NCBI GenBank assembly: GCA_052390515.1
Contig: JBQTGV010000105.1
Span: 1-19,131 of the forward strand
Length of the DNA stretch: 19,131 nucleotides
Source of the DNA: Candidatus Eiseniibacteriota bacterium
GTDB taxonomy: Bacteria; ARS69
Direction: 5' to 3'
Positions 2,234 to 19,131 of this stretch are shown piece after piece. Position 1 is the stretch's first letter. Every line of letters begins with the position of its first letter. The notes beneath the pieces are model-generated. The model made no database searches and had not been told where the DNA came from. It saw nothing but the letters and a program-made list of their open reading frames with translations. The position numbers and the translations under genes were made by a program.

Positions 2234-2238
2234 GGTCC

Positions 2239-2244
2239 ATCATA
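2239..2244 (-). promoter_or_regulatory. Putative -10 box (TATGAT) giving a leaderless transcript of the LVIVD gene
   Basis: The minus strand reads TATGAT-ggacc-ATG(2233). There is no Shine-Dalgarno sequence, and an AT-rich hexamer is rare in this high-GC DNA. Confidence 0.5.
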
Positions 2245-2278
2245 GGGCAGGAACCCGCCCCGTGTCACGCCGTGCGGG

Positions 2279-3973
2279 TCACCGGACAAGAACGACGCGC
2301 GCGCCGGCAGCCACGCGGGCGGAGTGAACCCGGGCGAAGTACACGCCCGCCGGGACCGGAGCGCCCCCGATGTCCCGCCCGTCCCACTCGAACCGTCCGG
2401 CACAGATCGCCGGAGCCGGGTCCACGATCCGCTTCACCAGCCCGCCGCCGGCATCGTGGATCGTGACGTTGGCGCGCCGGTCGGTGAGACCCTCCACTTC
2501 CAGCACGCACCGATCGCGCATCGGGTTCGGCGACACGGTGAGGCGCAAGCCGCTCGCCACTGCCGGCGTGAGAGGCGCGCCGACCGCTCCGAGCGCGCGG
2601 CGCCGATACCAGACCTGCAGCGATCCGGTCCGGTCGTCCCCCCACACCAGATGCAGGTACGCGCCGCTCACCGCGGGAAGCGGCGCGACGGATTCGCCGG
2701 CGGCCTCCGTGACGCGCTCCTCGGCCGCCCACGTGGCGCCGCCGTCGAGCGAGGTCAGGTAGTAGATCTCCGTGTTCGTGGAATCGCGGCGGTCGTGCCA
2801 GGCGAGGTGCACGGAGGCGCCGGACCCCACCATGGCGCCGTGGTCCGAGGGCGAGTCGGTGAGCCGCACTTCCGTGCCCCACGTCGCGCCATCGTCCGTG
2901 GAGCGGACCACGTACATTCTCCCGCCGTCTCCGGCCACGACGTCCTGGTTGTAGTTCACGACGACGGCGCTCGGCGACGCCGCCGCCACCTCCGGCCGGC
3001 CCGCGAAGCGGTTCCCTCCCGTGGTCAGGCGCACGTCGGGACCCCAGCTCGTCCCGCCGTCGGCCGACCGCTTGAAGTACGTTTCCGGGCAAACGGGCAC
3101 GGTATAGCAGGGGGGATTGGCGTCGCGGTCGTCGCCCCAGACGACGTGCACCGAGGCGCCGCGCGCGGACACCTGCGGGCGCCCGAGGCCGACGGAGCCG
3201 GCGGCGGCCGCCGCGAGCAGCACTTCCGGCTGCCAGGAAGCGCCGCCGTCCAGCGAGCGGCGGTAGTAGATCTCCGAGACGATGTCCGGACGCCGGAAGT
3301 CCATCCACGCCATGTCCAGCCGCGGCCCGGAAGTGAAGAGCGAGATGCGGTAAGCCCCGCCGGCGGTCGTCAGGCGGGACTCGGGGAGCCAGGTCAGGCC
3401 GCCGTTGGTCGACCGCCTGAGGTAGATGTCCCCGATCTGCCGCGGACAGCACCAGTCCGTGACGATCGTGATGTTGCGCAAATAGACCACGTACACGTTC
3501 GCGCCGTCGGCCTGGACAGGATCGGTGAGGTGCGGCTCGCCGTCGGCGGAGATCACCGTGTCCGCGCTCCAGGTCGCGCCCTCGTCGGTAGAGCGCCGGT
3601 AGTAGACCGGGCTGATCCCCCAGATGAGGTGCGCAGTGGTGCCGCTCGCGGCGATGCCGTAGGCCCATACGTCGCCGGGTGCCGCGCTGATCTGCCGCTC
3701 CGGATCCCACTGCGCGAGCGCCGAGCGCGCGCCGAGACAGGCGGCGATGACGAGGACCCACCACACCACGGAACCCGGTCCGGCGGTCCACGTGTCCGGA
3801 CGACGCGGGTCGTGCGCGTCCCGGCGTTCCAATCCAGGCGTGCGAAGTAGACGCCGCTCCCCACGGGACGGCCGCCGTCGTCCCCGCCTGCCCACCGGAA
3901 CGCGTGCGGCCCGGCCGCGAGCGCGCCGTCGACCAGCCGGCAGGGCGAGAGCGAACCCCCTAACGTGTCGCAT
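2279..3973 (-). CDS. Secreted Asp-box/BNR (sialidase-like fold) beta-propeller protein with FlgD-like C-terminal domain; start uncertain (ATG 3973 with strong RBS, or GTG 3769)
   Basis: Six Asp-boxes: RSTDEGATW, RSTNGGLTW, RSLDGGASW, RSADGGTSW, RSTDDGATW, TSLDGGATW. A hydrophobic signal-like segment VVWWVLVIAACLGARSALA|QW precedes them. The tail is SPNPM...WDGRDIGGAPVPAGVYFAR...VVLVR. The ORF-track extension to 4282 overlaps birA and is not credible. Confidence 0.8.
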   Translation of the reverse strand: MRHVRGFALALPAGRRRARGRAARVPVGRRGRRRPSRGERRLLRTPGLERRDAHDPRRPDTWTAGPGSVVWWVLVIAACLGARSALAQWDPERQISAAPGDVWAYGIAASGTTAHLIWGISPVYYRRSTDEGATWSADTVISADGEPHLTDPVQADGANVYVVYLRNITIVTDWCCPRQIGDIYLRRSTNGGLTWLPESRLTTAGGAYRISLFTSGPRLDMAWMDFRRPDIVSEIYYRRSLDGGASWQPEVLLAAAAAGSVGLGRPQVSARGASVHVVWGDDRDANPPCYTVPVCPETYFKRSADGGTSWGPDVRLTTGGNRFAGRPEVAAASPSAVVVNYNQDVVAGDGGRMYVVRSTDDGATWGTEVRLTDSPSDHGAMVGSGASVHLAWHDRRDSTNTEIYYLTSLDGGATWAAEERVTEAAGESVAPLPAVSGAYLHLVWGDDRTGSLQVWYRRRALGAVGAPLTPAVASGLRLTVSPNPMRDRCVLEVEGLTDRRANVTIHDAGGGLVKRIVDPAPAICAGRFEWDGRDIGGAPVPAGVYFARVHSARVAAGARVVLVR

Positions 3974-3986
3974 TTCCGCACCTCCT
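3790..3986 (-). pseudogene. Internally deleted secreted-protein gene: RBS, ATG and signal-peptide start joined out of frame to an orphan C-terminal sorting-domain fragment
   Basis: AGGAGGT (3986-3980), 6 nt, then ATG (3973) encoding MRHVRGFALAL. Another frame at 3939-3790 encodes RLVDGALAAGPHAFRWAGGDDGGRPVGSGVYFARLDWNAGTRTTRVVRTR, which matches the tails of the neighbouring secreted proteins. Confidence 0.7.
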
Positions 3987-4052
3987 GACTGCGCGCGGGG
4001 TCGGGTTCCGGCACGACCGACGGGATGTCCTGCAGATACGAGCCGTGGGAAT

Positions 4053-5090
4053 CTACCTCCCGGTCTCCGAGGCGGACCAGGGTCCGGGCTCCGGCCCGCC
4101 GCCGGCGGCGGTCGACCTCGGCGCGACAGCAGCCTCGCCGCTGCGCAGGGCGACCGTCCCCTGACTTGCCACTTCGACGAGCAGCCGGCCCTCGCCGTCG
4201 ATGCCCCGGGCGACGCCGGTCTGTGCGCCGCCGGCCCCTTGGGCGACGACTTCACGGCCGGCGAGCGCGTCGCGCTCGGCAAAGGCCGCCGCGAGATCCA
4301 GCCGGTCGGCGCGTTCGTCGTCGAGGAGATCCTCGAACCGGTTCAGCAGCGCGGCGAGCAGCGCGCTGCGGGAGAGGCGGCGGCCGGTCACGCTCTCGAG
4401 CGAGCCGGCAGTTGCCCGGATCTCGGGCGGGAAGTCCGCGTCGCGGTGGTGCACGTTGATGCCGATCCCCGCGACCGGGATGGTTGCGCCGCCGGCCGAG
4501 CGCGCCTCGATGAGTATGCCGCACACCTTGCGGCCGCCGAGCAGCACGTCGTTCGGCCACTTGAGGGAGGCGGCGGCGCCGGCCTCGCGCTCGATCACGT
4601 CGGCTACGGCGAGTCCGGCGACGAGCGAGAGCCGGGGTGCTGCCGCCGGATCGGAGGGCGAATCGAGCAGCGTGCTGCACCAGACGCCGAGCCCCGGCCG
4701 CGAGTCGAACCCACGGCCGCGCCGGCCGCGCCCCGCGGTCTGCAGCTCGGCGGCCACGCAGAGTCCGGGCGCAGCACCCGCCGCCGCGCGCTCGAGCACG
4801 ACGTCGTTCGTGGAGCGCACCGAGGCGAAGGTCTCGAGCGGCCGGCCGAGGCGGCGCGTGGTCAGTTGCTTCGACACCTCGTCCGCCGACAGCACCGAGC
4901 CGCGCGGGCCGGGACGCACGACACCGTCCCCCGGCGGCTCGATGAGACCGGCCGCGGCGAGGTCGGCCAGGGCGTCGCCGACGGCTGCTGCCTCGAAGCG
5001 GCTCGAGAGCTCGGCGACATGGACCGGCCCGCGCCGGCCCAGCAATGCGAGGACCTCGGCTTGCACCTTGCGGAGCGAGTACTCGCTCAC
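4053..5090 (-). CDS. birA: Biotin--[acetyl-CoA-carboxylase] ligase with a divergent N-terminal HTH-like region (about 345 aa)
   Basis: Motifs STND, AELQTAGRGRRGR, LKWPNDV, RKVCGILIE, GIGINV and C-terminal GVARGIDGEGRLLV. The GTG start at 5090 overlaps the nadC TGA (GTGA). Confidence 0.93.
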   Translation of the reverse strand: MSEYSLRKVQAEVLALLGRRGPVHVAELSSRFEAAAVGDALADLAAAGLIEPPGDGVVRPGPRGSVLSADEVSKQLTTRRLGRPLETFASVRSTNDVVLERAAAGAAPGLCVAAELQTAGRGRRGRGFDSRPGLGVWCSTLLDSPSDPAAAPRLSLVAGLAVADVIEREAGAAASLKWPNDVLLGGRKVCGILIEARSAGGATIPVAGIGINVHHRDADFPPEIRATAGSLESVTGRRLSRSALLAALLNRFEDLLDDERADRLDLAAAFAERDALAGREVVAQGAGGAQTGVARGIDGEGRLLVEVASQGTVALRSGEAAVAPRSTAAGGGPEPGPWSASETGR

Positions 5091-5964
5091 GCGCCCTCCA
5101 GCAACAGCGAGAAGTCGATCGCCTTCGCGCTGTGAGTCAGCGCCCCGAGGCTCACGAGGTCGATGCCGGCGTCGGCCAGCTCCGCCAGCCGCTCCGCGCG
5201 AATCCCGCCGGACGCTTCCAGCTCCGGCCGCGTCCCGCGCGGACCGAGCGCCGCCGCGGTGCGGCGGATCTCCTCGGTCGTCATGTTGTCGAGCAGGATG
5301 CGGTCGACGTGAAGCTTCGCCGCCTCCATGGCCTCGTCGAAGCTGCGCGCCTCGACGGTGATCGGCAGCCGCGCGGACTTCGCGTCGGCGCGCACCGCGG
5401 CCACGGCCGCGCCGATCCCCCCCGCCAGGGCGATGTGGTTCTCCTTGAGCATCACCATGTCGGCGAGGCTCCAGCGGTGGCTCGTCCCGCCGCCGACTAC
5501 CACCGCCCACTTCTCCAGCGCACGAAGACCCGGCGTCGTCTTCCGCGTGTCGCACACCGCGAGGCGTCCGCCGGCCGCGTCGACGGCGCGGCGCGTGGCC
5601 GTGGCGATTCCCGAAAGCCGCTGCAGGAAGTTCAGCGCGGTGCGCTCTCCGGACAGCAAGGCACCCGCCGGTCCCTCCACCGTCAGCACCACGTCGCTGG
5701 CGGCGAAGCGGTCCCCGTCGGAGCGTCCTCCGACCCGGCACTCGCCCGGCGCCAGCGTCTCGAAGACCCGCGCGAACACGGCCACGCCGGCCAGCACGCC
5801 GCCTTCCCGCGCCAGCACCTTCGCCTTCACCGTTCGGCTCCGCCCCGGCAGTGGCAGCGTCGAACGATCGTCGAACGCCGCGTCCTCCTCCATCGCCCGC
5901 TGCACGAGCGCATCGAGCACGTCCGCCGCCGGCACCTTCGCGTCGAACGATCCGAGCAGCTTCC

Positions 5965-5968
<4 letters not shown>
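5087..5968 (-). CDS. nadC: Nicotinate-nucleotide diphosphorylase (carboxylating) / quinolinate phosphoribosyltransferase (about 293 aa)
   Basis: Motifs [63 protein letters not shown]. The GTG start at 5968 overlaps the uvrB TGA (GTGA). The ORF-track extension to 7600 is a shadow over uvrB. Confidence 0.95.
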
Positions 5969-8022
<2,054 letters not shown>

Positions 8023-8028
8023 CGGGGC

Positions 8029-8034
8029 AGTGTA
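8029..8034 (-). promoter_or_regulatory. Putative -10 box (TACACT) for a leaderless uvrB transcript
   Basis: The minus strand reads TACACT-gccccg-ATG(8022), with no SD between them. Confidence 0.55.
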
Positions 8035-8062
8035 CCCCCCCGGGCGGTCCCCCGGGGAGCGG

Positions 8063-8091
8063 TGCTATAGTGGCTCATCCCCCAAGGAGGT
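8063..8091 (+). promoter_or_regulatory. Extended -10 promoter (TGcTATAGT) and RBS (AAGGAGGT) of the large BNR-repeat gene
   Basis: TG at 8063-8064, TATAGT at 8066-8071, AAGGAGGT at 8084-8091 and an in-frame TTG at 8096. Confidence 0.65.
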
Positions 8092-8095
8092 CAGC

Positions 8096-10621
8096 TTGCG
8101 AGCCCATCCCCTCACTACGTCGAGCACCGCGCTCTTCGCGTTCCTCACCCTCGGCACGGCCTTCGCCGCGGATCCGCAAACGGCCGTGGCACCCGAGAGC
8201 CCCTTCGCCGAAATCGGCCGCTGGTTCGAAGCGCACCCCGAGCTCCAGGACAGGTCCGGCACCGGCTGGAAGCCCTACAACCGGATCAAGTGGTTCCACG
8301 AGCGGCGCATGGACGGGGGGACGCTCCCTCCGGGCGATGCGCGGTGGCGAGCTTGGGAGGAGAAGCGGCGTCGCGAGACGGCCATGGGACCGTCGGCGCG
8401 CTCCACGTGGTTCGCGCTCGGACCGGCGAACTTCGGGGGCCGCATGCTGGCCATCGACTTCGACGCGACGAACCCGAGCATCGTGTACGCGGGAGCGGCG
8501 GGCGGCGGCGTGTTCAAGTCGACTGACGCGGGTCTCTCGTGGACGGCCGTGTCCGACGGGATCCCTTCGCTCGGTGTCGGCGCGCTGGCGGTCAGCCGGA
8601 CGAACCCGAACGTCGTGGTGATCGGAACGGGCGAGGGCACGCTCAACATCGATCGGGTCCTCGGCGTCGGCATCCTGCGCTCCACCGACGCGGGCGCCAC
8701 CTGGCAGACGACCAACCTCTCGTATGCGCAGGTCACCGCGCACGGCTTCCACTTCGCCACGGCGGGGCCGAGCGGCACGCTGCTGGCCGGCGCTGTGGAC
8801 GGGATGTTCCGCTCCGTGGACGACGGCGCCACCTGGACCGAGGTCATGCCCACCGTGGGATCGACTTTCGCCAACGGCTGGTACGACGCGCAGTGGGATC
8901 CGGCGGACCCGAACCGCGTCTATGCCGTCAAGGGCAACGACTCGACGACGAACGGCGTGTACGTCTCCACCGACGACGGCCTCACTTGGGCGATCGTCGG
9001 CACGGGGCAGCCGGCAGCGGGGAGCTTCGGCAAGTGCAAGCTCGGCGTCAGCGGGGACAACGTGTACTGCTACGTGGGCAGCCCCGGCTTCGGGGGCGGC
9101 GTCTTCGGTCTGATTCGTTCCACCGACGACGGCGCGAACTGGGTGCAGGCAGTCGGTACGGGTCTCCCCAGCGGGCAGTCCTGGTACAACCTCTCCTGCG
9201 TCGCGGACCCGAACAACTCCGCCCGGGTGATCTGCGGCGCGGTGATCTTCGCCCGCTCCAGCGACCTGGGTGACACGTTCGTCGAAGTGGGTAGCAACGT
9301 CCACGTCGACCACCATGCCCTGAAGTACGAGCCGGGCTCCAACGGCCGCGTGTGGGCGTGCAGCGACGGCGGCGTGTGGTTCTCCGCGACCGATGGGTCC
9401 CTGTTCTCCTGGCAAGATCGCAACGCCGGTCTCGTGAGCTACCAGTTCTACGACATCTGCGTGAACAACGGCGCGGACCCCTACTACGTCATGGGCGGCA
9501 CCCAGGACAACGGCACCGACAAGTGGTCCGGAACGACGACTTGGGCCGACGGCCTCGGCGCCGACGGCATGGTGTGCAACGTCGACCCGACGAACGGCAC
9601 GACCGTGTATGCGGAGATCCAGAACGGCGGCCACAACAAGAGCCTCGACTCCGGCGCCTCGTTCTTCAGCATCGGCAACGGCATCACCGGCTCCGGCCGC
9701 TGGGTGACGCCGGTCGATGAGGACCAGACGGACGGCGACCGGCTCTTCACCGAGACATCCACCGGCGTGTTCCGCACCACGGACGGCGGGGCGAACTGGT
9801 CGAACGTCACCTCGTCACGAGCCGTCTGGATATCCATCAGCTCCATAGATCCGCAGATCGTGTGGACGACGAACGGCGGGACCACGCAGCGCAGCACCGA
9901 TGGCGGCGACACGTGGAACGTCGTGGCGGCGTTCCCCTTCTCCATCGGCGGTTCGACGAAGGTCTACGCGCATCCGGCGGACGTATCCACCGCTTTCGTC
10001 TGCTTCTCGAGCTACTCGAACGTGGTCACGCTGGCGCGGACGACGGACGACGGAGGCACCTGGACCGACGTGACCGGGGACCTGCCGCTCATCCCGGTGA
10101 ACGGAATCGCCATCCATCCGGCGGCTCCCGACGACTGGTACATCGCCACGGATCTCGGCGTGTGGCACTCGGGCAACGGCGGCGTTAACTGGCTGCCCTA
10201 TGCCACCGGCCTGCCGAACGTGGTCGTCGAGGACGTCGAGATCAAGCTCGTGCCTGGAAAGCTGGTGGCCGGCACGCACGGGCGCGGCGCCTGGGAGATC
10301 GACCTCGGGCTAGCGGTCGGTGTCGAGACGGACGTGGCGGTCGAGCCGGCCGCGCGCAACTTGATGTTCGACGAGCCTTGGCCGAACCCGGCGAAGGACC
10401 GCACGCTGCTCCGCTACGCGGCGAAGAGCGCTGGTGCTGTGACGCTCCGCATCTACGACGTGCGCGGGCGTCTGGTCAGCAGTCTCGAGGGCTTCTCCCG
10501 CGGGGACGGCATCATCCGCACGACGCCGTGGTTCCCGGACGACGTGGCCAACGGCGTGTACTTGGCCGTGCTGGAGGCCGGCGGGGAGCGGGTCACGCGG
10601 AAGATCACGGTCTTGAAGTAG
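8096..10621 (+). CDS. Secreted VPS10/GH74-like BNR-repeat double beta-propeller protein with T9SS type A-like C-terminal domain
   Basis: TTG start after a strong RBS gives the signal peptide MRAHPLTTSSTALFAFLTLGTAFA. Motifs include WFALGPANFGGR, many Asp-boxes (KSTDAGLSW, RSTDAGATW, RSVDDGATW, STDDGLTW, RTTDGGANW), HVDHH, GGTQDNGT and AGTHGRGAW. The tail is WPNP...IYDVRGRLV...NGVY...RKITVLK. Confidence 0.88.
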   Translation: MRAHPLTTSSTALFAFLTLGTAFAADPQTAVAPESPFAEIGRWFEAHPELQDRSGTGWKPYNRIKWFHERRMDGGTLPPGDARWRAWEEKRRRETAMGPSARSTWFALGPANFGGRMLAIDFDATNPSIVYAGAAGGGVFKSTDAGLSWTAVSDGIPSLGVGALAVSRTNPNVVVIGTGEGTLNIDRVLGVGILRSTDAGATWQTTNLSYAQVTAHGFHFATAGPSGTLLAGAVDGMFRSVDDGATWTEVMPTVGSTFANGWYDAQWDPADPNRVYAVKGNDSTTNGVYVSTDDGLTWAIVGTGQPAAGSFGKCKLGVSGDNVYCYVGSPGFGGGVFGLIRSTDDGANWVQAVGTGLPSGQSWYNLSCVADPNNSARVICGAVIFARSSDLGDTFVEVGSNVHVDHHALKYEPGSNGRVWACSDGGVWFSATDGSLFSWQDRNAGLVSYQFYDICVNNGADPYYVMGGTQDNGTDKWSGTTTWADGLGADGMVCNVDPTNGTTVYAEIQNGGHNKSLDSGASFFSIGNGITGSGRWVTPVDEDQTDGDRLFTETSTGVFRTTDGGANWSNVTSSRAVWISISSIDPQIVWTTNGGTTQRSTDGGDTWNVVAAFPFSIGGSTKVYAHPADVSTAFVCFSSYSNVVTLARTTDDGGTWTDVTGDLPLIPVNGIAIHPAAPDDWYIATDLGVWHSGNGGVNWLPYATGLPNVVVEDVEIKLVPGKLVAGTHGRGAWEIDLGLAVGVETDVAVEPAARNLMFDEPWPNPAKDRTLLRYAAKSAGAVTLRIYDVRGRLVSSLEGFSRGDGIIRTTPWFPDDVANGVYLAVLEAGGERVTRKITVLK

Positions 10622-10690
10622 TTGCAGACGCCGGCGGAGAAAGCCCTGGTCGCGTGCATGGCGGGCGCGACACGGGCGTTCGAGGGCCGA

Positions 10691-10975
10691 ATGGCGGCGG
10701 CGACACCGCTGTGGTTCCACCGGCGCGTGCGTGGCGCGGAGTCTTGGGAGACGCGTTACGCTTACGGCGACGTCGGCCTGCTGACGCGCATGTTCGAGAC
10801 CGCCGGTTTCGTCTGAGAGAGCGTTCGACGCTTCGCGTTCCTGGAAGGCTACCTGGGCAGGTTCGCCGGTCTCGCAGCGCCGGCGCGGACCTACGACCGG
10901 CTCGTCACGAAGCTCGGGCCGAGCGACCTCCTCGGGAACGTGTTCGTCGCCTTCGCGAAACCGCAACAAGAATGA
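10691..10975 (+). pseudogene. Remnant resembling the C-terminal half of a class I SAM-dependent methyltransferase, interrupted by an in-frame TGA at 10814-10816
   Basis: Reading through the TGA gives AAATPLWFHRRVRGAESWETRYAYGDVGLLTRMFETAGFV*ESVRRFAFLEGYLGRFAGLAAPARTYDRLVTKLGPSDLLGNVFVAFAKPQQE*. The 'L..MF..AGF.' and terminal 'FVAFAKP' resemble methyltransferase C-termini. No SAM-binding motif I is present. Confidence 0.45.
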
Positions 10976-13900
10976 GGCCCACCGTCACCGCGGCCCCCAC
11001 CAGCGGCAACGTCCGGTGCGACGCCGGCGCCTCGAATCCCGCGGTCACCACGAACGGCGCCCACTCTCGCGGGGCCGCCCCGGCGGCCATCGCCTCGAGC
11101 TGCGCGTGCCGCAGGGCCATGTCGGTGGGCACGCCGTCATCGAGGAGTGCGCCGTAGAACGAATCCATCAGGCCGGCAGCGGACCGGTCCGCCACCTCCC
11201 ACAGCGAGATGAGCACGGCACCCGCCCCGGCCTGCAGGAAGGCGCGCGTCAGACCCAGCACCCCTTCGCCCCCGGCGATGCGGCCGAGACCGCTGTTGCA
11301 CGCCGACAGCACCACGAGATCCGCGCCCAGCCCGAGCTGCATCACCTCGTGCGCCTGCAGGAAGCCGTCCTCCGCCGGGTCCTCGTCCTGGGCCAGCGTG
11401 AGCCCCGAGAGCAGCGGCTCATCCTCGTCCAGCAGGCCGTGCGTGGCGAAGTGCAGGTACGTGGCGCCGCCGGCCAGAGCTTTCACCGCTTCCTCCCTCG
11501 CCTCTTCGCCGATCAGGACGGTTGCCTTGCGGAAGCGCGCGGCGACCTTCCGTGCTTCCTCCCCGGCGAAGGGTAGCTCGCCGAAGCGCCAGCCGCGAGC
11601 GTCACGGGCGGCATCCAGCAGCGCGACGGTTCGGTAGGTGGATGGGTTTCCCACGGCGAGCAGCGTCCGCTCGCCGCCCCTCCGCGGCCTGCGCAGCTCC
11701 GCGTCGAGGGCGCTGGCCGACGGCGCCTGCGCCACGGCGTGCTGCTCCACCAGGAAGGAGCTGCCGTCGTGCAGCACGGCGAACGGGAAGTGCAGCAGCG
11801 GACCGTCGGCGACCACGACGAGCCGTGCCGCCGCGCTCAGCTCCGCCGCGACCGGTTCGACCAGCAGAGCGTGCAGCACCTGTGCCGCCCGCGGATCGAA
11901 GCGGTCGGACATCATCGACTCGCGCGCGGCCTGCACGAGCCCGCGCAGCGATTCCGCGCCCAAAGGGATGCGAAGCGCGCGGAAGCGGTCCCGCCCGACG
12001 ACGAAGGCGAAGGTCTGGTCGCTGCCGACCAGATACTCCAGGAGCAACTGGTCGTCGCCCAGGACACGCTTGCGGATCTCCGCCAGGGTGAGCGGAGCAC
12101 TTCCGCGGGAAAGGCCGCCGCCCTGCTCCAGCACCGCGCGGTACTCCCGTGCCTTCGCGTCGACGGCGTCGGTGAGCGAATCCGCGCGCGCCTCCTCCCA
12201 CTGCTCGGCGGACACGGTCTGCGAGAGCTCCGCCTGCAGCGCGGCGAGCTCCGCCGAGAGCTTCCGCTCGCGGTCGCGGAGCGCGGGAGCTGTGGTGTGG
12301 GACGGCGCGTCGGCCCCCGCGGACATCACCTCCAGCAGCACGCGCGCACGCGACCGCTCCGCGACGTCGAACGCCAGCTCGTCCCGGCCGAGCTCGTGCA
12401 GCACCGCGGCACGCCGCACGTAGATTTCCTTCTTGTCGGTGAAGAAGCCGAGGCGAAGCTCCTCCCCGGCCAGGCGCTCACGCACCGACTCCACGATCTC
12501 GACGGCTTCGGCCAGCAGCGAATCCGCGCGGGCCAGCTCGCCGGCGCGCGCACACACGTCCGCCTCATCCACCAGCGCCTCCCGCAGCAGGGAGACAAAA
12601 CCGTGGCGACGTGCAGCGTCGATTGCGTCCGCGTAGAGCCCGCGGGCGACGCCGTCTTCCCCCTTCGCGGCGCAGACTCGCCCGAGGCAGCGCTCGGCTT
12701 CCGCGAGCAGGTAGGGGTGGTCGATGGAGTCGGCCACGGCGCGCGCCCGGGCGAGATCCTCCCGGGCGCGGTCCCAGTCCCCGAGATCCGCGCGCACCTT
12801 TCCCAGGGCGACGAGGATCTCCACCGCGCGGGAACGCACCTCGGTGTCCTGGGCGAGGTGCCAGGCCTGCTCCAGCGGCGCAACCGCGCCGGCCGCATCC
12901 CCGAGGTCGACGTGGGCGAGCGCCATCCCCATGAGCACCGCCGCCTCGTGTCTTGGAGCACCCAACGCGCGTGCGGAAGGCAGCACCTCCTCGAGGTGGC
13001 GCAGGGCCTCGTCCGGACGCCCGAGGGTGAGGTACGTCTCGCCGATCTGCGTCGCGAGCAGCGCCTTCGCTTCCTGGATCCCGGTCTCCTCCGCGAGCAG
13101 CGTGCCATCCTGCAGCACCGAGAGCGCCATGGAGTAGCGCTCGAGCGACTGATAGAGCCACGCCAGCCCGATGATCGTGCCCAGCTCGGCTCCCTTCGCC
13201 CCGATCTCGCGCTGGATCCGGCGCGCCTGCTCTCCCTCGGATATCGCCGCCTCGACCTGCCCCGAGAGCCCGAGCACGTGGGCCAGCATCCCGCGCAGCT
13301 CTCCCTCCCAGTGCCGGCGCTCCGAGGGCGGGACTTGCGGGATCCTCGCGAGGCCTTCCTCCAGATCCTCGCGCGCGGCGTCCAGCTCGCCGCCCTGCGA
13401 CCGGCACTGCGCAATGCTCAGCGTGGCCCAGACCCACGTCCCCCAGTCCCCGGCCTGCTGCGCCGGGTCGAGCACCGCGGACAGCGTGGCGATGCCTTCG
13501 GCAAGGCGGTCCGCGCCGAACTGTGCGCGGCCGATCCACACGCGCAGGTTGAGCGCACCGACGCCGTCGCCCAGATGCTCCGCCATCTCCACCGCCTTCT
13601 CGTACTCGCGAAGTCCCGCATCGGTGGACTCCGTGATGAGCATGCAGCGCGCCCGGACTCGCTGGACGTCCAGCTCGAGGTACGGGTCGGAGGCTCGTGA
13701 CGCGGCGCTCTCCACCGCCGGCAGTGCATCTCGCACCAGATTCCAGCGCGCACCGAGCGCGACGCATTCCCGGTAGCGCTTCCAGCCTTCGACCAGCGCG
13801 GGAAGCCGGCCGGCCGGCAGCGATTCGTGGAAGGCAACGATTCGAAGAGCGAAGGAGTCGGCCAGCGCCTCACGGTACAGTGCGGCCAGCGCGCGCGTCT

Positions 13901-14150
13901 CGACGAGCAGGGCCGCCGCCGAGTCCGCCCGACCGGTGAGCAGGTGCCCGGCTCGTTCGACGAGCAGGTCGCGCACCACGGGTGCTGCGGCGCGCCGTTC
14001 ATCGCCCAGCAGTGACCGCGCCGACGCCGTGTCCGCCGCGGACAGCGCCTGCTCCAGCCGCTCGCGGAGCGGAGGCACCTGCGCCGGAGCCACCTGCACC
14101 AGGCCAAGAGCGACTCCCGCGGCCCACCACGCCGGCCGCGGTATCTTCAC
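10905..14150 (-). CDS. Exported TPR-repeat / CHAT-domain (caspase-like clan CD) protease with C-terminal membrane anchor (1081 aa)
   Basis: Signal peptide MKIPRPAWWAAGVALGLVQVAPA|Q and a long TPR-like helical region. AFDVAERSRARVLLE precedes the CHAT catalytic motifs LHFATHG and LVVLSACNSG, followed by SLWEVAD and WAPFV. The end is a hydrophobic LPLVGAAVTVGLILVAVS followed by RRRR. The GTG start overlaps the upstream TGA. Confidence 0.93.
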   Translation of the reverse strand: MKIPRPAWWAAGVALGLVQVAPAQVPPLRERLEQALSAADTASARSLLGDERRAAAPVVRDLLVERAGHLLTGRADSAAALLVETRALAALYREALADSFALRIVAFHESLPAGRLPALVEGWKRYRECVALGARWNLVRDALPAVESAASRASDPYLELDVQRVRARCMLITESTDAGLREYEKAVEMAEHLGDGVGALNLRVWIGRAQFGADRLAEGIATLSAVLDPAQQAGDWGTWVWATLSIAQCRSQGGELDAAREDLEEGLARIPQVPPSERRHWEGELRGMLAHVLGLSGQVEAAISEGEQARRIQREIGAKGAELGTIIGLAWLYQSLERYSMALSVLQDGTLLAEETGIQEAKALLATQIGETYLTLGRPDEALRHLEEVLPSARALGAPRHEAAVLMGMALAHVDLGDAAGAVAPLEQAWHLAQDTEVRSRAVEILVALGKVRADLGDWDRAREDLARARAVADSIDHPYLLAEAERCLGRVCAAKGEDGVARGLYADAIDAARRHGFVSLLREALVDEADVCARAGELARADSLLAEAVEIVESVRERLAGEELRLGFFTDKKEIYVRRAAVLHELGRDELAFDVAERSRARVLLEVMSAGADAPSHTTAPALRDRERKLSAELAALQAELSQTVSAEQWEEARADSLTDAVDAKAREYRAVLEQGGGLSRGSAPLTLAEIRKRVLGDDQLLLEYLVGSDQTFAFVVGRDRFRALRIPLGAESLRGLVQAARESMMSDRFDPRAAQVLHALLVEPVAAELSAAARLVVVADGPLLHFPFAVLHDGSSFLVEQHAVAQAPSASALDAELRRPRRGGERTLLAVGNPSTYRTVALLDAARDARGWRFGELPFAGEEARKVAARFRKATVLIGEEAREEAVKALAGGATYLHFATHGLLDEDEPLLSGLTLAQDEDPAEDGFLQAHEVMQLGLGADLVVLSACNSGLGRIAGGEGVLGLTRAFLQAGAGAVLISLWEVADRSAAGLMDSFYGALLDDGVPTDMALRHAQLEAMAAGAAPREWAPFVVTAGFEAPASHRTLPLVGAAVTVGLILVAVSRRRRTRSRGGRSARAS

Positions 14151-14884
14151 AGCAACTGGCCCGGAGAGATCTGCACGAGCAGATCATGCGCCTCGCCGGA
14201 GTGGTCGCCGCCCTCGGAGACGTTCTCCTCCAGCACGGCGCGCGCCTCGTCCAGGCGGCCGGCCTTCAGGTACGCGTTGGCCAGCACCCAGGTCCACCTG
14301 GAGTGAAGCTCCTCCGGCGCGCCGGCGGCCGCCGCCTCCAGCGGCTCGATGGCCGACTCCGCGTCGCCGCGCAGCGCCCTGGACAGCCCGAACAGGTACG
14401 CCGCCTCCAGCGCCGAGGGATCCCGCTCCATCGCCGCGCGGAAGCGCTCCTCGGCCTGATCGTGCTCGCCGAGCTCCAGGTAGGAGACCCCGGCCTCGAG
14501 CAGCTCCCGCGTCCCGTCCTCCAGGCTGCCGGCGCGCGTAAGCGCCGACGTCGGCCCCTCGTGCGGAAACGTGGCCAGCTCACGGAGGTCGGGCGTGCGC
14601 GGGCGAAGCAGCAGCACCGCGGCGAAGGCCACCGCCGCCGCCAGCGGCAGCGTCAAGCGCAGGGCCGGCCAGAGCGGGGGCCGTGCCGGCTTCTCCGTGA
14701 CCGCCTCCAGGAGCGCCGTCCCCTTCCCGCGCAACGCATCGGTCGCGGCCGATCCGCGCGAGAGCTCCGCGAAGCATTCGTCGCACTCCAGCGCGTGCGC
14801 TTCGAAGGCGCGGCGCTCGTCCCCCTCGAGCAGACCTTGCTCGTACGCGGCGAGCCGCTCGCGCATCTGCTGGTGCACGTTCAT
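14147..14884 (-). CDS. Zinc-finger (zf-HC2) anti-sigma factor with a transmembrane helix and extracytoplasmic TPR domain (about 245 aa)
   Basis: ATG at 14884 overlaps the sigma TGA (ATGA). LAAYEQGLLEGDERRAFEAHALECDEC contains HxxxCxxC. The TM segment is LTLPLAAAVAFAAVLLL, followed by TPR-like GVSYLELGEHDQAEERF...AAYLFGL...LANAYLKAGRLDEARAVL. Confidence 0.88.
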   Translation of the reverse strand: MNVHQQMRERLAAYEQGLLEGDERRAFEAHALECDECFAELSRGSAATDALRGKGTALLEAVTEKPARPPLWPALRLTLPLAAAVAFAAVLLLRPRTPDLRELATFPHEGPTSALTRAGSLEDGTRELLEAGVSYLELGEHDQAEERFRAAMERDPSALEAAYLFGLSRALRGDAESAIEPLEAAAAGAPEELHSRWTWVLANAYLKAGRLDEARAVLEENVSEGGDHSGEAHDLLVQISPGQLL

Positions 14885-15426
14885 GTTCCCGTCCCTCCGA
14901 GCCTCTCCAGCTCGCGCAGCAGCTTCTCGCGGCAGCGAGAGACGCGGCTGTACGTCGTGCCGATGGCCTCGTCGCCGAACGCGCGGCGGATCTCTTCCCG
15001 GTCGGCGTCGGCCAAGAGGAGCCGGAACAGCCGCTTGCACTCGGGCGTTGCCCTGCGCAGCGCCTTCGCCACCGCCTCCTCGAACTCGATCAGCTCGACG
15101 GCTTCCTCGCCGGCGCGACGATCGGTCAATTTCGCCAGCTCCTCCGGCGAAGCGGCGCGGCTGTCCTGCGCCCATTTCGCCTTCAGGTAGTTGCCCACCT
15201 TGTTGCGCAACACGGCGAGTACCCAGGGGATGAGGCCGTGGGCCAGCTCGGCCTCCTTGTACTTCGCCAGGACGGTGCGGATCGTCTCCTGTGCAATGTC
15301 ATCAGCCGCATCCGCGTCCCACACCCTCCTTTTCGCGGCGGCCACCACCCTTGCATGCAGCTTCTGGAAGAGCCGGTTCTCCGCGTCGCGGTCCCCGCCG
15401 CGCGCACGAGTGAGCAGATCGTCCAT
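14881..15426 (-). CDS. ECF RNA polymerase sigma-70 factor (181 aa)
   Basis: Region 2 is LLTRARGGDRDAENRLF...AADDIAQET...WVLAVLRNKVGNY. Region 4 is REEIRRAFGDEAIGTTYSRVSRCREKL. GGGGA lies upstream of the ATG. Confidence 0.9.
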   Translation of the reverse strand: MDDLLTRARGGDRDAENRLFQKLHARVVAAAKRRVWDADAADDIAQETIRTVLAKYKEAELAHGLIPWVLAVLRNKVGNYLKAKWAQDSRAASPEELAKLTDRRAGEEAVELIEFEEAVAKALRRATPECKRLFRLLLADADREEIRRAFGDEAIGTTYSRVSRCREKLLRELERLGGTGT

Positions 15427-15504
15427 GAGATCCCCGCCGCTGCAAGGAGGCGGCCCGTCCGGAAAAGGGCAGCGTAGGAAGCATCCAACCCGAGGTCAAA
15501 CGAG

Positions 15505-17847
15505 ATGAACGGTTCCTTCCTCCGTGCGCTGCTTTTGGCGGCGTGCTGTCCGGCGGCGAACGCCGCGCCCACCTGGTGGTCGCTGGACACCATGCCCGCG
15601 GGAACGCCGCCGACCGTGCAGTGCCTCACCTCCTCCACCCCGGACCAGACCGTTCTGGACGTGACGCTCCACGGTTTCTGGTACGAGACCCTGACCCAGG
15701 GACAGCAGGCCTTCCAGCGCCTCAGCCTGAACCGCACCCGCGACGAGGCGCTGAGCCGGCAGATCGGCCGGCCGGAGCTGCCCGCCGTGCACCACCTCCT
15801 CGGCAACCTGACCGGCGGGCAGATGCAGGCTCCGTCGGTCACGCCCATCTCCGAGGTGCAGATTCCGGGTGCGGTGATCTGGCCCGCTCAGCCGGTGCTC
15901 ATGGAGGACCAGCAGTCCGGTCCATTCCAGCAGGACACGGCCTTCTACCAGCAGACGAGCTCGGTCTGGCCGGCGGCGCGGGGTGCCGCGCTGGGCACCG
16001 CCGGCCGCTTCGACGGGCTCGATTTGATGGCGGCGGAGACCTACCCCTTCCGTGTCGTCCCCGCCACGCAGACCCTGATCGTGACCCAGCACTACATGGT
16101 GGCGATCGCGCACGCGGGGACCGGTACGCCGGCGACCGAGACGATCACACGTCGGCGCGCGAAACAGTACGAGCTCGCCCTGGACAACTTCGCCGTCGTT
16201 TCGCCCCTTCGCCCGGCGAACGTGCTCGGATACGCCGGCGACTACCTGATCGTCACCGACCCGCTGTTCGTGGAGGAGATCGAGCCGCTGGCGGATCAGA
16301 AGCGGGAGCGCGGCTACACGGTGCTCGTGGCCGACACCGACGAGACCGGCACGACCTGCGCGGAGATCCGGGGCTTCGTCACCGACTGGTGGAGCGCCGC
16401 ACCGGAGAAGGACCACTACGTGCTGCTCGTCGGGGACACCACGTCGGTTCCCCTGTGTCCGTCCGAGAGGCTCACCGGCTCCGACATCCTCTACGCCTGC
16501 GTGGACGGGCTCGCCGCCGACGGGCTCCCGGACGTCTACCCGGAGGCGCGCCTCGGCCGCTTCCCCTGCGTCACGGAGTCCGAGTGCACGCAGATGGTGA
16601 CCAAGACCTTGACCTACGAGGACGACTACGACTTCACCGACACCTGGCTCTCCGAGGTGGTGCTGGCCTGCCACGAGGAGGCGGACCTGGTCTACCCGGA
16701 CCAGTACCGCGACGCGCAGGAGACGGTGCGTGCGTATCCGTTCACGAGTCCGCCATCCTTCACCACGCGGTACGGCCAGGACGGCGCCACCGACGCGGAG
16801 GTGCGCAGCGACGTGAACGGCGACATCGGCCTCCTGTGCTACCGCGGCCACGGCAGTTCGGATTCCTGGAGCGGGGACTGGAACCTGGCCAACGAGAGCT
16901 TCGACACGTTCGACGTCGGGCTGCTGACCAACCAGCCGAACACGCCGGTCGTCTTCTCCATCGCCTGCCTGAACAACTCCATCAGCACTTTCGAGTGCAT
17001 CGGGGAGAAGTGGATGAAGACGACGGGGCGGTCGGTGGCGCACTTCGCCGCTTCGCACTGCACGTCCCGGGACGCCAACGACCTGCTGGACCTGGAGCTG
17101 TTCGAGACGATCTACGAGGACGGCCACCGGATCCTGGGCGAAGCGATAGCCGCGGCGCACGCCGCCACCATGATCTCCTTCCCGGTCGAGGGCGAGGCGA
17201 ACGCCTGGCAGTACCTGCTGCTCGGGGATCCGGAGCTGGAGGTGTGGACCGCCGCTCCGCCGCCGCTCTTCGTGCTGGCCGACGTGAGCGAGGTGTCTAC
17301 GGGACCAACGACCGTCGTGGTGACGGTGAGCGGAAGCTCGGCGCGGTCCGCGACGGGCGTGTCGATGGCGACGGTCGCGGTGTGGAAGGACGGCGAGGTG
17401 TCCGAGGCGCTCTACACGGACGCGATGGGACAGGTGTCGGTGCCGGTCGATCCGCAGACGCCGGGCACGCTCACCATTACGGCGTACACCGAGCTCGGGC
17501 CCGAGGGGGTCGGTGCGCTGACGATTCCGGTGACCGGGCCGACGGCGGCGCTGGACGTGGCGGCGGCGGCGACGCTTCGCCTCGGGCCGGTGGCCCCGAA
17601 CCCGTCGCGCGAGCGAGTCGTGGTGCCTTTCACTCTGCCGGCGGCGGGACGTGCGAAGCTCGAGGTGATCGATGCTTCGGGGCGGCGCGTGGCGAAGCTG
17701 GCGGATGAGGTGGCCGCGGCCGGCGCGTATGCACGTGCGTGGAACGGACGCGGGGCTGACGGCAGGGTCGCCGCTCCCGGCGTGTACTTCCTGCGGCTGA
17801 CACACGCCGGCGCGACGCGGACGGCGAAGGTGACGCTGGTACGGTGA
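15505..17847 (+). CDS. Secreted gingipain-like peptidase C25 with propeptide, Ig-like domain and FlgD-like C-terminal domain (780 aa)
   Basis: Signal peptide and propeptide motif GRPELP. C25 motifs are YLIVT, YVLLVGD, SDILY, LGRFP, catalytic YRGHG (about 16840-16854), FSIACLN (Cys at 16966-16968) and YLLLGDP. The tail is APNPS...WNGRGADGRVAAPGVYFLR...KVTLVR. RBS GAGGT. Confidence 0.92.
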   Translation: MNGSFLRALLLAACCPAANAAPTWWSLDTMPAGTPPTVQCLTSSTPDQTVLDVTLHGFWYETLTQGQQAFQRLSLNRTRDEALSRQIGRPELPAVHHLLGNLTGGQMQAPSVTPISEVQIPGAVIWPAQPVLMEDQQSGPFQQDTAFYQQTSSVWPAARGAALGTAGRFDGLDLMAAETYPFRVVPATQTLIVTQHYMVAIAHAGTGTPATETITRRRAKQYELALDNFAVVSPLRPANVLGYAGDYLIVTDPLFVEEIEPLADQKRERGYTVLVADTDETGTTCAEIRGFVTDWWSAAPEKDHYVLLVGDTTSVPLCPSERLTGSDILYACVDGLAADGLPDVYPEARLGRFPCVTESECTQMVTKTLTYEDDYDFTDTWLSEVVLACHEEADLVYPDQYRDAQETVRAYPFTSPPSFTTRYGQDGATDAEVRSDVNGDIGLLCYRGHGSSDSWSGDWNLANESFDTFDVGLLTNQPNTPVVFSIACLNNSISTFECIGEKWMKTTGRSVAHFAASHCTSRDANDLLDLELFETIYEDGHRILGEAIAAAHAATMISFPVEGEANAWQYLLLGDPELEVWTAAPPPLFVLADVSEVSTGPTTVVVTVSGSSARSATGVSMATVAVWKDGEVSEALYTDAMGQVSVPVDPQTPGTLTITAYTELGPEGVGALTIPVTGPTAALDVAAAATLRLGPVAPNPSRERVVVPFTLPAAGRAKLEVIDASGRRVAKLADEVAAAGAYARAWNGRGADGRVAAPGVYFLRLTHAGATRTAKVTLVR

Positions 17848-17854
17848 TTCGGCG

Positions 17855-19131
17855 CTACTGCGAGCGGTGCGGTTCGGAGAGGTGCCTGCGGATCTCCTGC
17901 GCGAGGCCCGCTCCGTCGAGCCCCTGCGCGTGAGGCAGCCGGCCGCCGAGCTGGTGCATGAAGAACTCGGGGGCCGGCGGCTCGCCGGCCTCCCACACCA
18001 CTCCCGGCGGATAGACCAGGTACACGTCCCAGGCCGGCTCGGTGGTGAGATGTATGGCCGGCTGGAACGCTTCGCCCAGCTCCGTGCCGTCCGTCCAGTA
18101 GTTCACCACCCGAGCATCCGGGAGAAGTGCCGTGGCCTTGCGCGCGGACCGCTCATCGTCCGTGCGGAGAATCGGCTCCCACACGGCGTAGACCACCAAG
18201 TTTGCGTCGGCCACTTCATCGAGAACATGCTCTCGCACCTCCCGGGCGCCTCGTTGGCAGCCGGGTCAGGTCGGCGAGAGGAGCATCAAGAGGCGCGTCT
18301 TGTCGCGGTCGGCGTTGAAGCGATCGCGAAGGGGGCGCGCGTCGGACGACAGTTCGGTGACGAGCGAGGGCTCGCCCGCCGCCGTCTCGAGCGCGAGGAA
18401 GTCCTTCGAGAACTGCGGCTCCGCCGTCACCCGGCGAAGCTCGAGCGGTACTTGCTCATCGCCGATCGTGGCGGTTCCGCCGATCCGGCTGCCGTCCTCG
18501 CCCAGCCTGCCCTCGAAGTCCGTCTCGATGGCGGTGAAGTGGAGGCGGATGGTCTCGCCGGCCTCGGAGACCTCGACCGGATAGTCCTCCACCTGGAACT
18601 CCATCAGATCGAACTCGCCGACCCATCGGGAACCGAGCGTTCCGAGGTCGACGACCATCCGCGAGACCTTCCCCTCTCCTGTGGGCAGATCCGTCTCCCA
18701 TTGGCCTCTGATCGAGGGTTCGCCCGCCGCCGGGGTGGCGGTCTTGCCGGCCGCCGGGGTGGCCTCGTCACCGCCGCCCGCAGACGCCAGCTTGTAGCCC
18801 GCGCTCGTCACCGCCGCGGCAAGAGCGGTCCGCGACGGAATGCGCGTGCTCTCCACCCGCAGCGCAGCGGTGCCGGCTTCATAGCCCGCGCCGGCCGCCA
18901 GGACTCCGGGAACCGCGGAGAGCGCCATCTCCACCGCGGCCTCGCAACCCGAGCAGGTCATCCCCTCGACTCCGAGCACGAGCTGTTCCGCGTCTTCGCC
19001 CGGGACCGCCGATGCTCCGCCGGCTCCGACCAGCCCACCGACGTAGCTCGGAAAGGACGCGAAGGCGACGACGAGCTCCGTGGAGATCCTCATCATCACG
19101 CGGTTCGTTCGCAGCCACCGGCGGTTCGACT
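17855..19131 (-). CDS. Probable selenoprotein (5'-partial): MerT-like terminal helix, HMA domain, beta-barrel and thioredoxin-like UxxC domain, with Sec TGA at 18266-18268
   Basis: ORFs 18266..19099 and 17855..18238 share a frame and join as DKTRLLMLLSPT-TGA-PGCQRGAREVREHVLDEVADANLVVYAVWEP. The HMA motif is VEGMTCSGCEAAVEMALSAVPGV. The frame stays open to the window edge (SNRRWLRTNRVMMRISTELVVAFASFPSY). Confidence 0.82.
18241..18265 (-). promoter_or_regulatory. Candidate bacterial SECIS-like hairpin directly 3' of the in-frame UGA
   Basis: The minus strand reads UGA-CCCGG CU GCC AACGA GGC GC CCGGG. CCCGG/CCGGG and GCC/GGC pair around an AACGA loop (folded by eye). Confidence 0.45.
18722..18763 (-). 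repeat. 18-bp direct repeat (1 mismatch) encoding the linker ATPAAG-KT-ATPAAG
   Basis: gcccgccgccggggtggc (18722-18739) and gccggccgccggggtggc (18746-18763), between the HMA and beta-barrel domains. Confidence 0.6.

Follow-up and report, generated by a model that had tools for sequence, protein, structure and literature searches.

A putative selenocysteine-containing thioredoxin-fold domain joined to MerT-like and HMA modules in Candidatus Eiseniibacteriota

Two open reading frames (ORFs) that share a frame and are separated by a single TGA may represent two genes, one broken gene, or one intact gene in which the TGA is not a stop. This question is raised by one end of a 19,131-nucleotide stretch of DNA from a Candidatus Eiseniibacteriota bacterium (contig JBQTGV010000105.1; the whole of this stretch, with a G+C content of 70.8%, is referred to here as the window), in which a TGA at positions 18266-18268 lies between two such ORFs. 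An original prediction, made from the sequence of the window alone, had placed this TGA correctly and had proposed that it is read as selenocysteine (Sec), thereby completing a U-P-G-C redox motif of the thioredoxin type. The analyses described below indicate that the UGA almost certainly encodes Sec, that the motif very likely belongs to a thioredoxin-fold active site, and, for the two claims combined, that a Sec-containing thioredoxin-fold active site is probably made here by UGA recoding. This assessment rests on comparison, which places the TGA in a column held by Cys in relatives, with coding constraint on both sides and an RNA element that overlaps the codons just downstream.

The first ORF (18266..19129, minus strand) is open to the window edge and ends at the TGA, past which the unchanged frame runs on, also on the minus strand, to a TAG at 17855-17857. 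Read as one gene, the putative selenoprotein gene occupies 17855..19131 of the minus strand and continues beyond the edge, leaving its 5' part incomplete; the span of 17855..18370 given in the original prediction corresponds to a real feature, but that feature lies on the minus strand and the span covers the C-terminal domain only. Translation from a GTG at 19099 gives a read-through product of 414 residues, with the predicted Sec (18266..18268, minus strand) at residue 278, and the frame taken to the window edge gives at least 424 residues. The product reads ...TRLLMLLSPT-U-PGCQRGAREVREHV...LVVYAVWEP...AWDVYLVY..., the local sequence around the motif being TRLLMLLSPT-U-PGCQRGAREV, and the predicted U-P-G-C active-site motif is encoded by 18257..18268 (minus strand), as judged from the read-through translation, the alignment, and a structural model in which it stands at the start of helix 1. 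Alignment with MerT-bearing homologs assigns 19028..19131 (minus strand) to the end part of a MerT-like module, namely its last transmembrane helix (...MMRISTELVVAFASFPSYV...), and orthologs carry approximately 90 further MerT residues upstream of the position of the window edge. Since only the last MerT helix lies inside the window, GTG 19099 is not the true start.

Evidence regarding the identity of the codon comes from a scan of a genome collection, which yielded 21 loci (labeled L001 and so on) containing 24 homologous sites. TGA is present at 22 of these sites and a Cys codon at the other two, a pattern that supports UGA-Sec recoding, as proposed, over two genes or a pseudogene; in the available text of PMC12013277 and PMC13188914, such pairing of Sec and Cys at one column is the standard signature for finding selenoproteins. 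The loci derive from metagenome-assembled genomes (MAGs) labeled Eisenbacteria/Eiseniibacteriota, Krumholzibacteriota, Acidobacteriota (mostly Pyrinomonadaceae), Thermoanaerobaculia and, in one case, 'Clostridia'. Protein similarity extends approximately 130 codons 3' of the TGA, and a conserved TGA with coding similarity on both sides is found in MAGs labeled Eisenbacteria, Krumholzibacteriota, Acidobacteriota and, once, Clostridia. Because the TGA is conserved in this manner across several MAG groups, it is neither a read error, which the original prediction had named as one way in which it might fail, nor a pseudogene private to this genome. Invariant residues on either side of the TGA are encoded by two to five synonymous codons, and the Cys at +3 is kept in all 12 Acidobacteriota sequences and in all six sequences of the Eisenbacteria group. 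Two paralogs are present in each of L019, L010, and L021.

Protein databases were searched with two queries. The whole read-through product matched 31 proteins, three of which are full length across the site and hold Cys at the TGA column (P0003, P0004, and P0030), P0003 being a protein of 460 amino acids that is 51% identical over 99% of the query. A further 27 stop exactly at ...LLSPT or ...LLAPS, one of these being the window's own record and 26 being others, and the remaining protein matched the HMA part alone. The shortest form of the protein (L006; 198 amino acids) matched 64 proteins. When both searches are pooled, C-x-x-C is found at the site in 19 database proteins, while another 33, each 115-135 residues long, are orphan C-terminal pieces whose start lies past the site. 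The expectation that standard annotation would split this gene is borne out by these two kinds of fragment; because gene callers cut the gene, leaving dozens of truncated or orphan entries, the family, its active site and its predicted use of selenium are invisible in annotation.

Ten more distant relatives were aligned, and all ten carry SPT-C-x-x-C. A profile search with the domain returned 2822 representatives of clusters at E <= 1e-3, of which 1737 reach <= 1e-10 and 309 reach <= 1e-30, and the residues at the motif were tallied in the best 148 of the 2822 together with the window protein, giving 156 domain matches. Both motif positions are occupied by Cys in 146 of the 156, with the window's read-through counted in as Cys; four of the other 10 miss the column and six differ at the Sec column (S twice; W, G, K, and D once each). 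In the 19 database proteins and in these 146 matches, then, the residue is Cys and not the Trp or Arg that the original prediction had named as pointing away from Sec. The family member P0189 reads SPT-W-PPC at the Sec/Cys column, which may represent a TGA that a pipeline translated as Trp under another genetic code.

The surroundings of the motif had been guessed to form strands and a helix in the order typical of thioredoxins, and both the guess and the fold assignment agree with an AlphaFold2 model of the C-terminal 193 residues (predicted local distance difference test score, pLDDT, 88.1; predicted template modeling score, 0.82). In this model strand 1 falls on RLLMLLS, helix 1 starts at PGC, and further strands fall on LVVYAVW and DVYLV, such that the U/C-x-x-C sits at the helix 1 start. 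The thioredoxin-fold domain, which belongs to a family lacking a model, is placed at 17876..18361 (minus strand) by alignment, AlphaFold2, Foldseek, and the profile search. The top Foldseek matches in the PDB are DsbE and DsbF of Mycobacterium tuberculosis, CcmG, ResA, DipZ-C, and the PilB N-domain, with 1lu4, 3ios, 1kng, and 2f9s among the entries matched; these are secreted or membrane-anchored thiol-disulfide reductases, with E-values from 1.5e-4, and peroxiredoxins and Sco2 are found lower (Sco2 at rank 28, E = 2.2e-3). Conserved motifs of the family are SPT-[U/C]-x-x-C, PDxR, WDVY, and MHQL, the His of the last being kept in most aligned members and differing in L010b, L021b, and two others. 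The short homologs start with a hydrophobic anchor or signal sequence. StoA was matched by one homolog at E = 0.019, far below the cut-off, and in a language-model comparison the neighbors of the Cys homolog P0003 were unnamed clusters followed by TlpA and AhpC-TSA (0.86), which serves as a lead only. Three proteins of 571-708 residues (P0095, P0096, and P0097) contain three matched domain stretches each, some of them partial, and may carry tandem copies.

The modules that precede this domain connect it with metals. Full-length orthologs in L001 (486 amino acids) and L002 (488 amino acids) consist of MerT, HMA, a beta-barrel, and the thioredoxin-like domain; the Pfam MerT model is matched at 45.2 bits in L001 and 34.2 bits in L002 (cut-off 32.9), the CC pair is present, and HMA follows. 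On the window protein the sole Pfam match is a MerP/CopZ-like HMA domain containing GMTCSGC (PF00403; residues 44-103, E = 3.4e-10; 18791..18970, minus strand). Only HMA, MerP, and CopZ-type matches are found with NCBIfam, all below cut-offs; the MerTP_fusion model NF033556 matches residues 4-104 in part (45.5 bits versus a cut-off of 180), and NF045683 matches the HMA region only (27.9 bits versus a cut-off of 375). The middle domain (residues 132-225; 18425..18706, minus strand), for which there is no Pfam model, is predicted by AlphaFold2 to be an eight-stranded beta-barrel of unknown function (pLDDT 92.3), and its Foldseek matches are exclusively weak and lipocalin/FABP-like (best E = 2.5e-3). 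In the MerT-fusion protein the MerT and HMA motifs are of the Cys form, and the predicted Sec lies in the added C-terminal domain.

Other members are built differently. Those of L003, L004, and L007 consist of a signal sequence, the barrel, and the thioredoxin-like domain, most of those from Acidobacteriota comprise an anchor and the thioredoxin-like domain (approximately 195 amino acids), and those of L009 and L010 join HMA to the thioredoxin-like domain. The gene in L009 (9686-10498, plus strand) contains two in-frame TGAs, one in an HMA motif reading GMT-U-AGC (9800-9802) and one in the thioredoxin-like motif (10103-10105), and has a third TGA as its stop codon. In the L009 protein, the signal sequence is succeeded by a lipobox-like LVGAC.

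Downstream of the UGA, synonymous sites are constrained in both of the groups compared. Among the 12 Acidobacteriota sequences, synonymous sites hardly vary at codons +4 to +10, with three single-sequence exceptions, and the frozen stretch corresponds to a stem of 8 bp capped by a GGC loop, 17 nt downstream of the UGA, in which 98% of cells are paired as compared with at most 74% when partner columns are slid. The six sequences of the Eisenbacteria group, one of them that of the window, likewise show almost no synonymous variation at codons +6 to +10, and for the window's group the RNAalifold consensus is a 5-bp stem, GCGCC/GGUGC, with a loop of C-G-[U/G]-G-N. The corresponding candidate selenocysteine insertion sequence (SECIS) core in the window, with a CGGGA loop, spans +17 to +31 after the UGA (18235..18249, minus strand). 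Folded alone, this hairpin forms in 8/8 group sequences with energies between -5.4 and -10.1 kcal/mol (-7.5 kcal/mol in the window), and L010b carries the same loop on another stem sequence. The rules for bacterial SECIS (bSECIS) elements, as far as they are set out in the available text of PMC13188914, call for a loop of 3-9 nt, a stem of at least 4 bp, a G within the first two loop positions, a distance of 16-37 nt from the UGA, and a minimum free energy (MFE) of at most -7.5 kcal/mol. By these rules, so far as that text gives them, the spacing (21 nt), the 5-bp stem, and the loop (G second) of the candidate core are within limits, while its energy lies right at the limit and a stronger hairpin competes with it.

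The competing structure is the GC-rich hairpin that the original prediction had described directly after the UGA. It does exist (18241..18265, minus strand; loop AACGA at +11): a 45-nt segment starting at the UGA has a folding energy of -20.6 kcal/mol (z = -2.77), which 3/200 shuffles reach, while that of an 86-nt stretch is unremarkable (z = -0.68). As a SECIS, however, it breaks the bSECIS rules available from that paper, having a spacing of 10 nt and a loop without an initial G; its 5' arm shows synonymous variation; and some of its bases belong also to the overlapping +17 to +31 hairpin, which it excludes and which is the better conserved of the two. Two further approaches to a shared structure were set aside. 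When the first 11 nt were removed, the Eisenbacteria group lacked one common MFE structure, and RNAalifold applied to all 22 sequences gave a weak 6-pair consensus mixing two hairpin registers, such that the per-group analysis was preferred.

These observations are consistent with a model in which a single polypeptide would comprise a MerT-like membrane module, HMA, an eight-stranded barrel, and a thioredoxin-fold domain bearing U-P-G-C. SelB with Sec-tRNA(Sec) would be recruited by the hairpin approximately 17-31 nt downstream of the UGA, and a ribosome arriving at the UGA would probably unwind the stabler hairpin beginning at +1, letting the downstream one form. The topology of MerT, together with the signal or anchor sequences of shorter homologs, suggests a periplasmic location for the HMA, barrel, and thioredoxin-like domains. 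There, an exposed selenolate at the first, nucleophilic position of UxxC might attack disulfides formed by the cysteine pairs of the neighboring HMA and MerT modules, and a MerR-controlled relay for soft metals (Hg/Cu) could thereby stay reduced and competent to bind metal. The functional reading favored here, albeit tentatively and with slightly less than even confidence, is a reductase resembling TlpA, ResA, or DsbE that would hold the thiols of the tethered HMA and MerT modules in the reduced state.

Several observations weigh against one or another part of this interpretation. Regarding the fold, the Foldseek template modeling scores are moderate (0.45-0.50 when normalized to the query, at most 0.62 when normalized to the target), and no TlpA, Redoxin, or Thioredoxin model in Pfam or NCBIfam matches the domain at E <= 1 to 10; the models that fail to match include Thioredoxin_8, AhpC-TSA, Redoxin, and Thioredoxin_2 (Pfam) and ResA/TlpA/DsbE (NCBIfam). 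Regarding the link to metals, three closest Cys or Sec forms (L003, L004, and L007) are without MerT and HMA, no merA gene lies within approximately 6 kb in L001 or L002, and among the best 148 representatives of the wider family HMA is found in 13, MerT in five, and no Pfam domain at all in 130. Because HMA and MerT are rare across the wider family, the link to metals is a trait of the subfamily and not of the domain as a whole. Regarding Sec insertion, tRNA scans covering the window and the 21 loci, and not whole genomes, found no tRNA-Sec, and within the same limits no sel gene (selA, selB, selC, or selD) is present among the 16 long ORFs of the window (Pfam) or in the flanks fetched. Of the 22 copies that carry the TGA, three are disrupted close to it, namely copy 1 of L019, L020, and the first of the two in L021. 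Finally, regarding the RNA, the Acidobacteriota stem has compensatory changes at only one of its eight pairs and its covariation score is reached by 36/500 shuffles, the MFE structure of the window is the hairpin at the UGA in place of the candidate SECIS core, a third structure takes over when the first 11 nt are removed, and the candidate core reaches merely -7.5 kcal/mol. Since covariation is weak and the stem almost invariant, the case for an RNA signal is built on the frozen synonymous sites.

The alternative that survives best concerns the function of the motif. In place of a redox center, U-x-x-C could be a site of soft-metal ligands, forming a periplasmic selenolate-thiolate clamp that captures Hg(II)/Cu(I) and either hands it to HMA and the MerT cysteine pair or sequesters it. 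In its closest relatives the domain forms one protein with MerT and HMA, and its genomic surroundings point the same way. In L001 and L006 the gene immediately upstream, in the same orientation, encodes a MerR-type regulator (its best match is MerR at 138 bits, short of the cut-off of 150.85, and ZntR and CueR come close); a heavy-metal P-type ATPase is found nearby in L001; and L006 contains Cus-like efflux genes together with a CopY/BlaI-like repressor. Moreover, a predicted Sec sits in the HMA metal motif of L009 itself, and one and the same protein would therefore use Sec to bind metal; the structural matches include the copper-binding thioredoxin fold of Sco2; the MHQL His is widely kept; and published lists of selenoproteins, in their available parts, include some that handle metals. 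Set against this are the identity of the best structural matches, which are reductases and not Sco, and the lack of any metal module in the 130 of the best 148 family representatives noted above. Direct metal binding by the domain, which would be compatible with a reductase role, is thus best viewed as possible but on the doubtful side, and the clamp is given the same standing. A more specific scheme, in which Sec is the entry ligand of a periplasmic Hg(II)/Cu(I) hand-off chain leading from U-x-x-C to the C-x-x-C of HMA and on to the CC pair of MerT, appears unlikely.

Returning to the predicted identity of the codon as Sec, a far less probable alternative is that the UGA is read as Cys, Trp, or Gly without selenium, either under a reassigned code or through near-cognate or suppressor decoding. 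The Trp found at the column in P0189 (SPTWPPC) would fit such decoding, as would the failure to see Sec machinery in the window or the 21 loci. TGA, however, terminates seven of the nine other Pfam-supported genes of the window and the double-TGA gene of L009; the RNA element conserved after the UGA would be needless under a reassigned code; and the partner residue in homologs is Cys, the standard signature of Sec according to the papers cited above, as far as their text is available. This alternative is accordingly considered very improbable. An internal in-frame TGA occurs in none of those window genes, and the orthologs of L001-L004 themselves terminate at TGA. With Rfam, the window yielded no match at gathering thresholds. 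In L009, ARAGORN calls a 90-nt tRNA at 3094-3183 (minus strand) with anticodon CTA, labeled tRNA-Pyl; no Rfam tRNA is found there at E <= 0.01, and the call is either false or an unusual suppressor-like tRNA.

Least probable of all is a true stop, whether in a pseudogene, through a sequencing error from TGC/TGT, or between two genes. Gene callers do treat the TGA in this way, the downstream ORF could begin at a GTG (18238), and three homologous copies have a disrupted frame nearby. Against this, TGA occupies the codon in question at 22 of 24 sites spread over several phyla, the three codons that follow it ahead of any start encode x-x-C with an invariant Cys and synonymous variation, the starts of the fragments vary among records, and in the predicted structure a split would part strand 1 from helix 1 and separate the two active-site residues. 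The three disruptions, each a frameshift or early stop, lie at L019:621-1072, L020:1892-1948, and L021:10082-10279, and may reflect assembly errors or decay; that in L020 is a 1-nt deletion within the conserved hairpin.

Comparison with known systems places the putative selenoprotein among familiar ones while setting it apart from each. Like the TlpA/ResA/DsbE/CcmG reductases, it has a thioredoxin fold with a strand-[U/C]xxC-helix arrangement, probably in a membrane-anchored or secreted protein, and like the selenoprotein forms of such reductases that have been listed (thiol:disulfide interchange protein, PF13098; thiol-disulfide isomerase-like, cd02966/PF13905; redoxin family, PF08534) it would carry Sec first in the motif; unlike TlpA/ResA/DsbE/CcmG, it has motifs of its own, no Pfam or NCBIfam match to the domain, and, in this lineage, a fusion to MerT, HMA, and a barrel. 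With the MerT-family selenoproteins (putative mercuric transport protein, PF02411; MerT/CopZ fusion-like heavy metal transport selenoprotein, NF045683) and Sec-MerP/HMA it would share the occurrence of Sec in a heavy-metal membrane protein composed of MerT and HMA, but those proteins hold Sec in the MerT/HMA motifs, whereas here it is predicted in a C-terminal thioredoxin-like domain. SaoT of the SAO organometallic system (NF040730) is likewise a thioredoxin-like UxxC selenoprotein that occurs among metal-handling (seleno)proteins; unlike the present domain, however, SaoT is MJ0307-like and approximately 85 residues long, NF040730 is unmatched here, and the related MJ0307-family model TIGR00411 matches only at E = 0.2. 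Finally, as in the Sco/TlpA pair for copper delivery, a thioredoxin fold would stand beside a copper-binding periplasmic partner. The motif of Sco is CxxxC, in contrast to the CxxC/UxxC motif here, and the domain shows no sequence match to Sco.

More than 100 families of bacterial selenoproteins are known, most of them thiol-oxidoreductase-like, as far as the sources available in part indicate; Table 1 of a 2022 review contains 87 (PMC9312934), BSepDB, in its accessible part, gives 111, and Sec-MerP was already on a list of selenoproteins in 2008. In the available text of PMC9312934 and PMC13188914 (Table 1), no Pfam or NCBIfam identifier matches the C-terminal domain, CDD identifiers being outside the comparison, and a literature search found no paper pairing Eisenbacteria with selenocysteine. 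As judged by those Pfam and NCBIfam identifiers and within those parts of the published lists, the protein would represent a new family among the UxxC selenoproteins of thioredoxin fold, a kind already well known, and is unusual in its fusion. A large family without a Pfam or NCBIfam model (2822 representatives at the threshold given above) would thus join the thioredoxin-fold selenoproteins, the use of selenocysteine would be extended to candidate phyla, and selenium would be tied to periplasmic heavy-metal handling through the fusion to MerT and HMA, while the understanding of Sec recoding itself is unchanged. Were the hand-off chain true, the protein would amount to a selenium-dependent device for metal uptake or sequestration in phyla of soil and sediment (Eisenbacteria, Krumholzibacteriota, Acidobacteriota), with double-Sec versions such as that of L009.

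The remaining genes around the homologs and in the window are of various kinds. In L001, between the regulator and the MerT-fusion gene, a gene at 9384-9731 (plus strand) matches the 'DF family (seleno)protein' model NF049942 in its Cys form (EGCPNH; 102.9 bits, cut-off 70). Downstream of the gene, L002 and L006 encode ResA/TlpA-like redoxins, and the flanks scanned contain no cytochrome oxidase genes. Approximately 500 nt downstream of the orthologous selenoprotein gene in L001 is a transfer-messenger RNA gene (11683-12035, minus strand) with the tag ADDQLALAA. In the window, the downstream neighbor of the putative selenoprotein gene is a convergent gene for a C25 peptidase. The rest of the window (53-17847) encodes many secreted proteins of large size whose C-terminal tails are of the FlgD_ig or Por_Secre_tail type, among them proteins with LVIVD repeats, BNR and sortilin-like proteins, and a C25 peptidase, as well as UvrB, NadC, BirA, and a CHAT-TPR protein that adjoins a zf-HC2/TPR protein.

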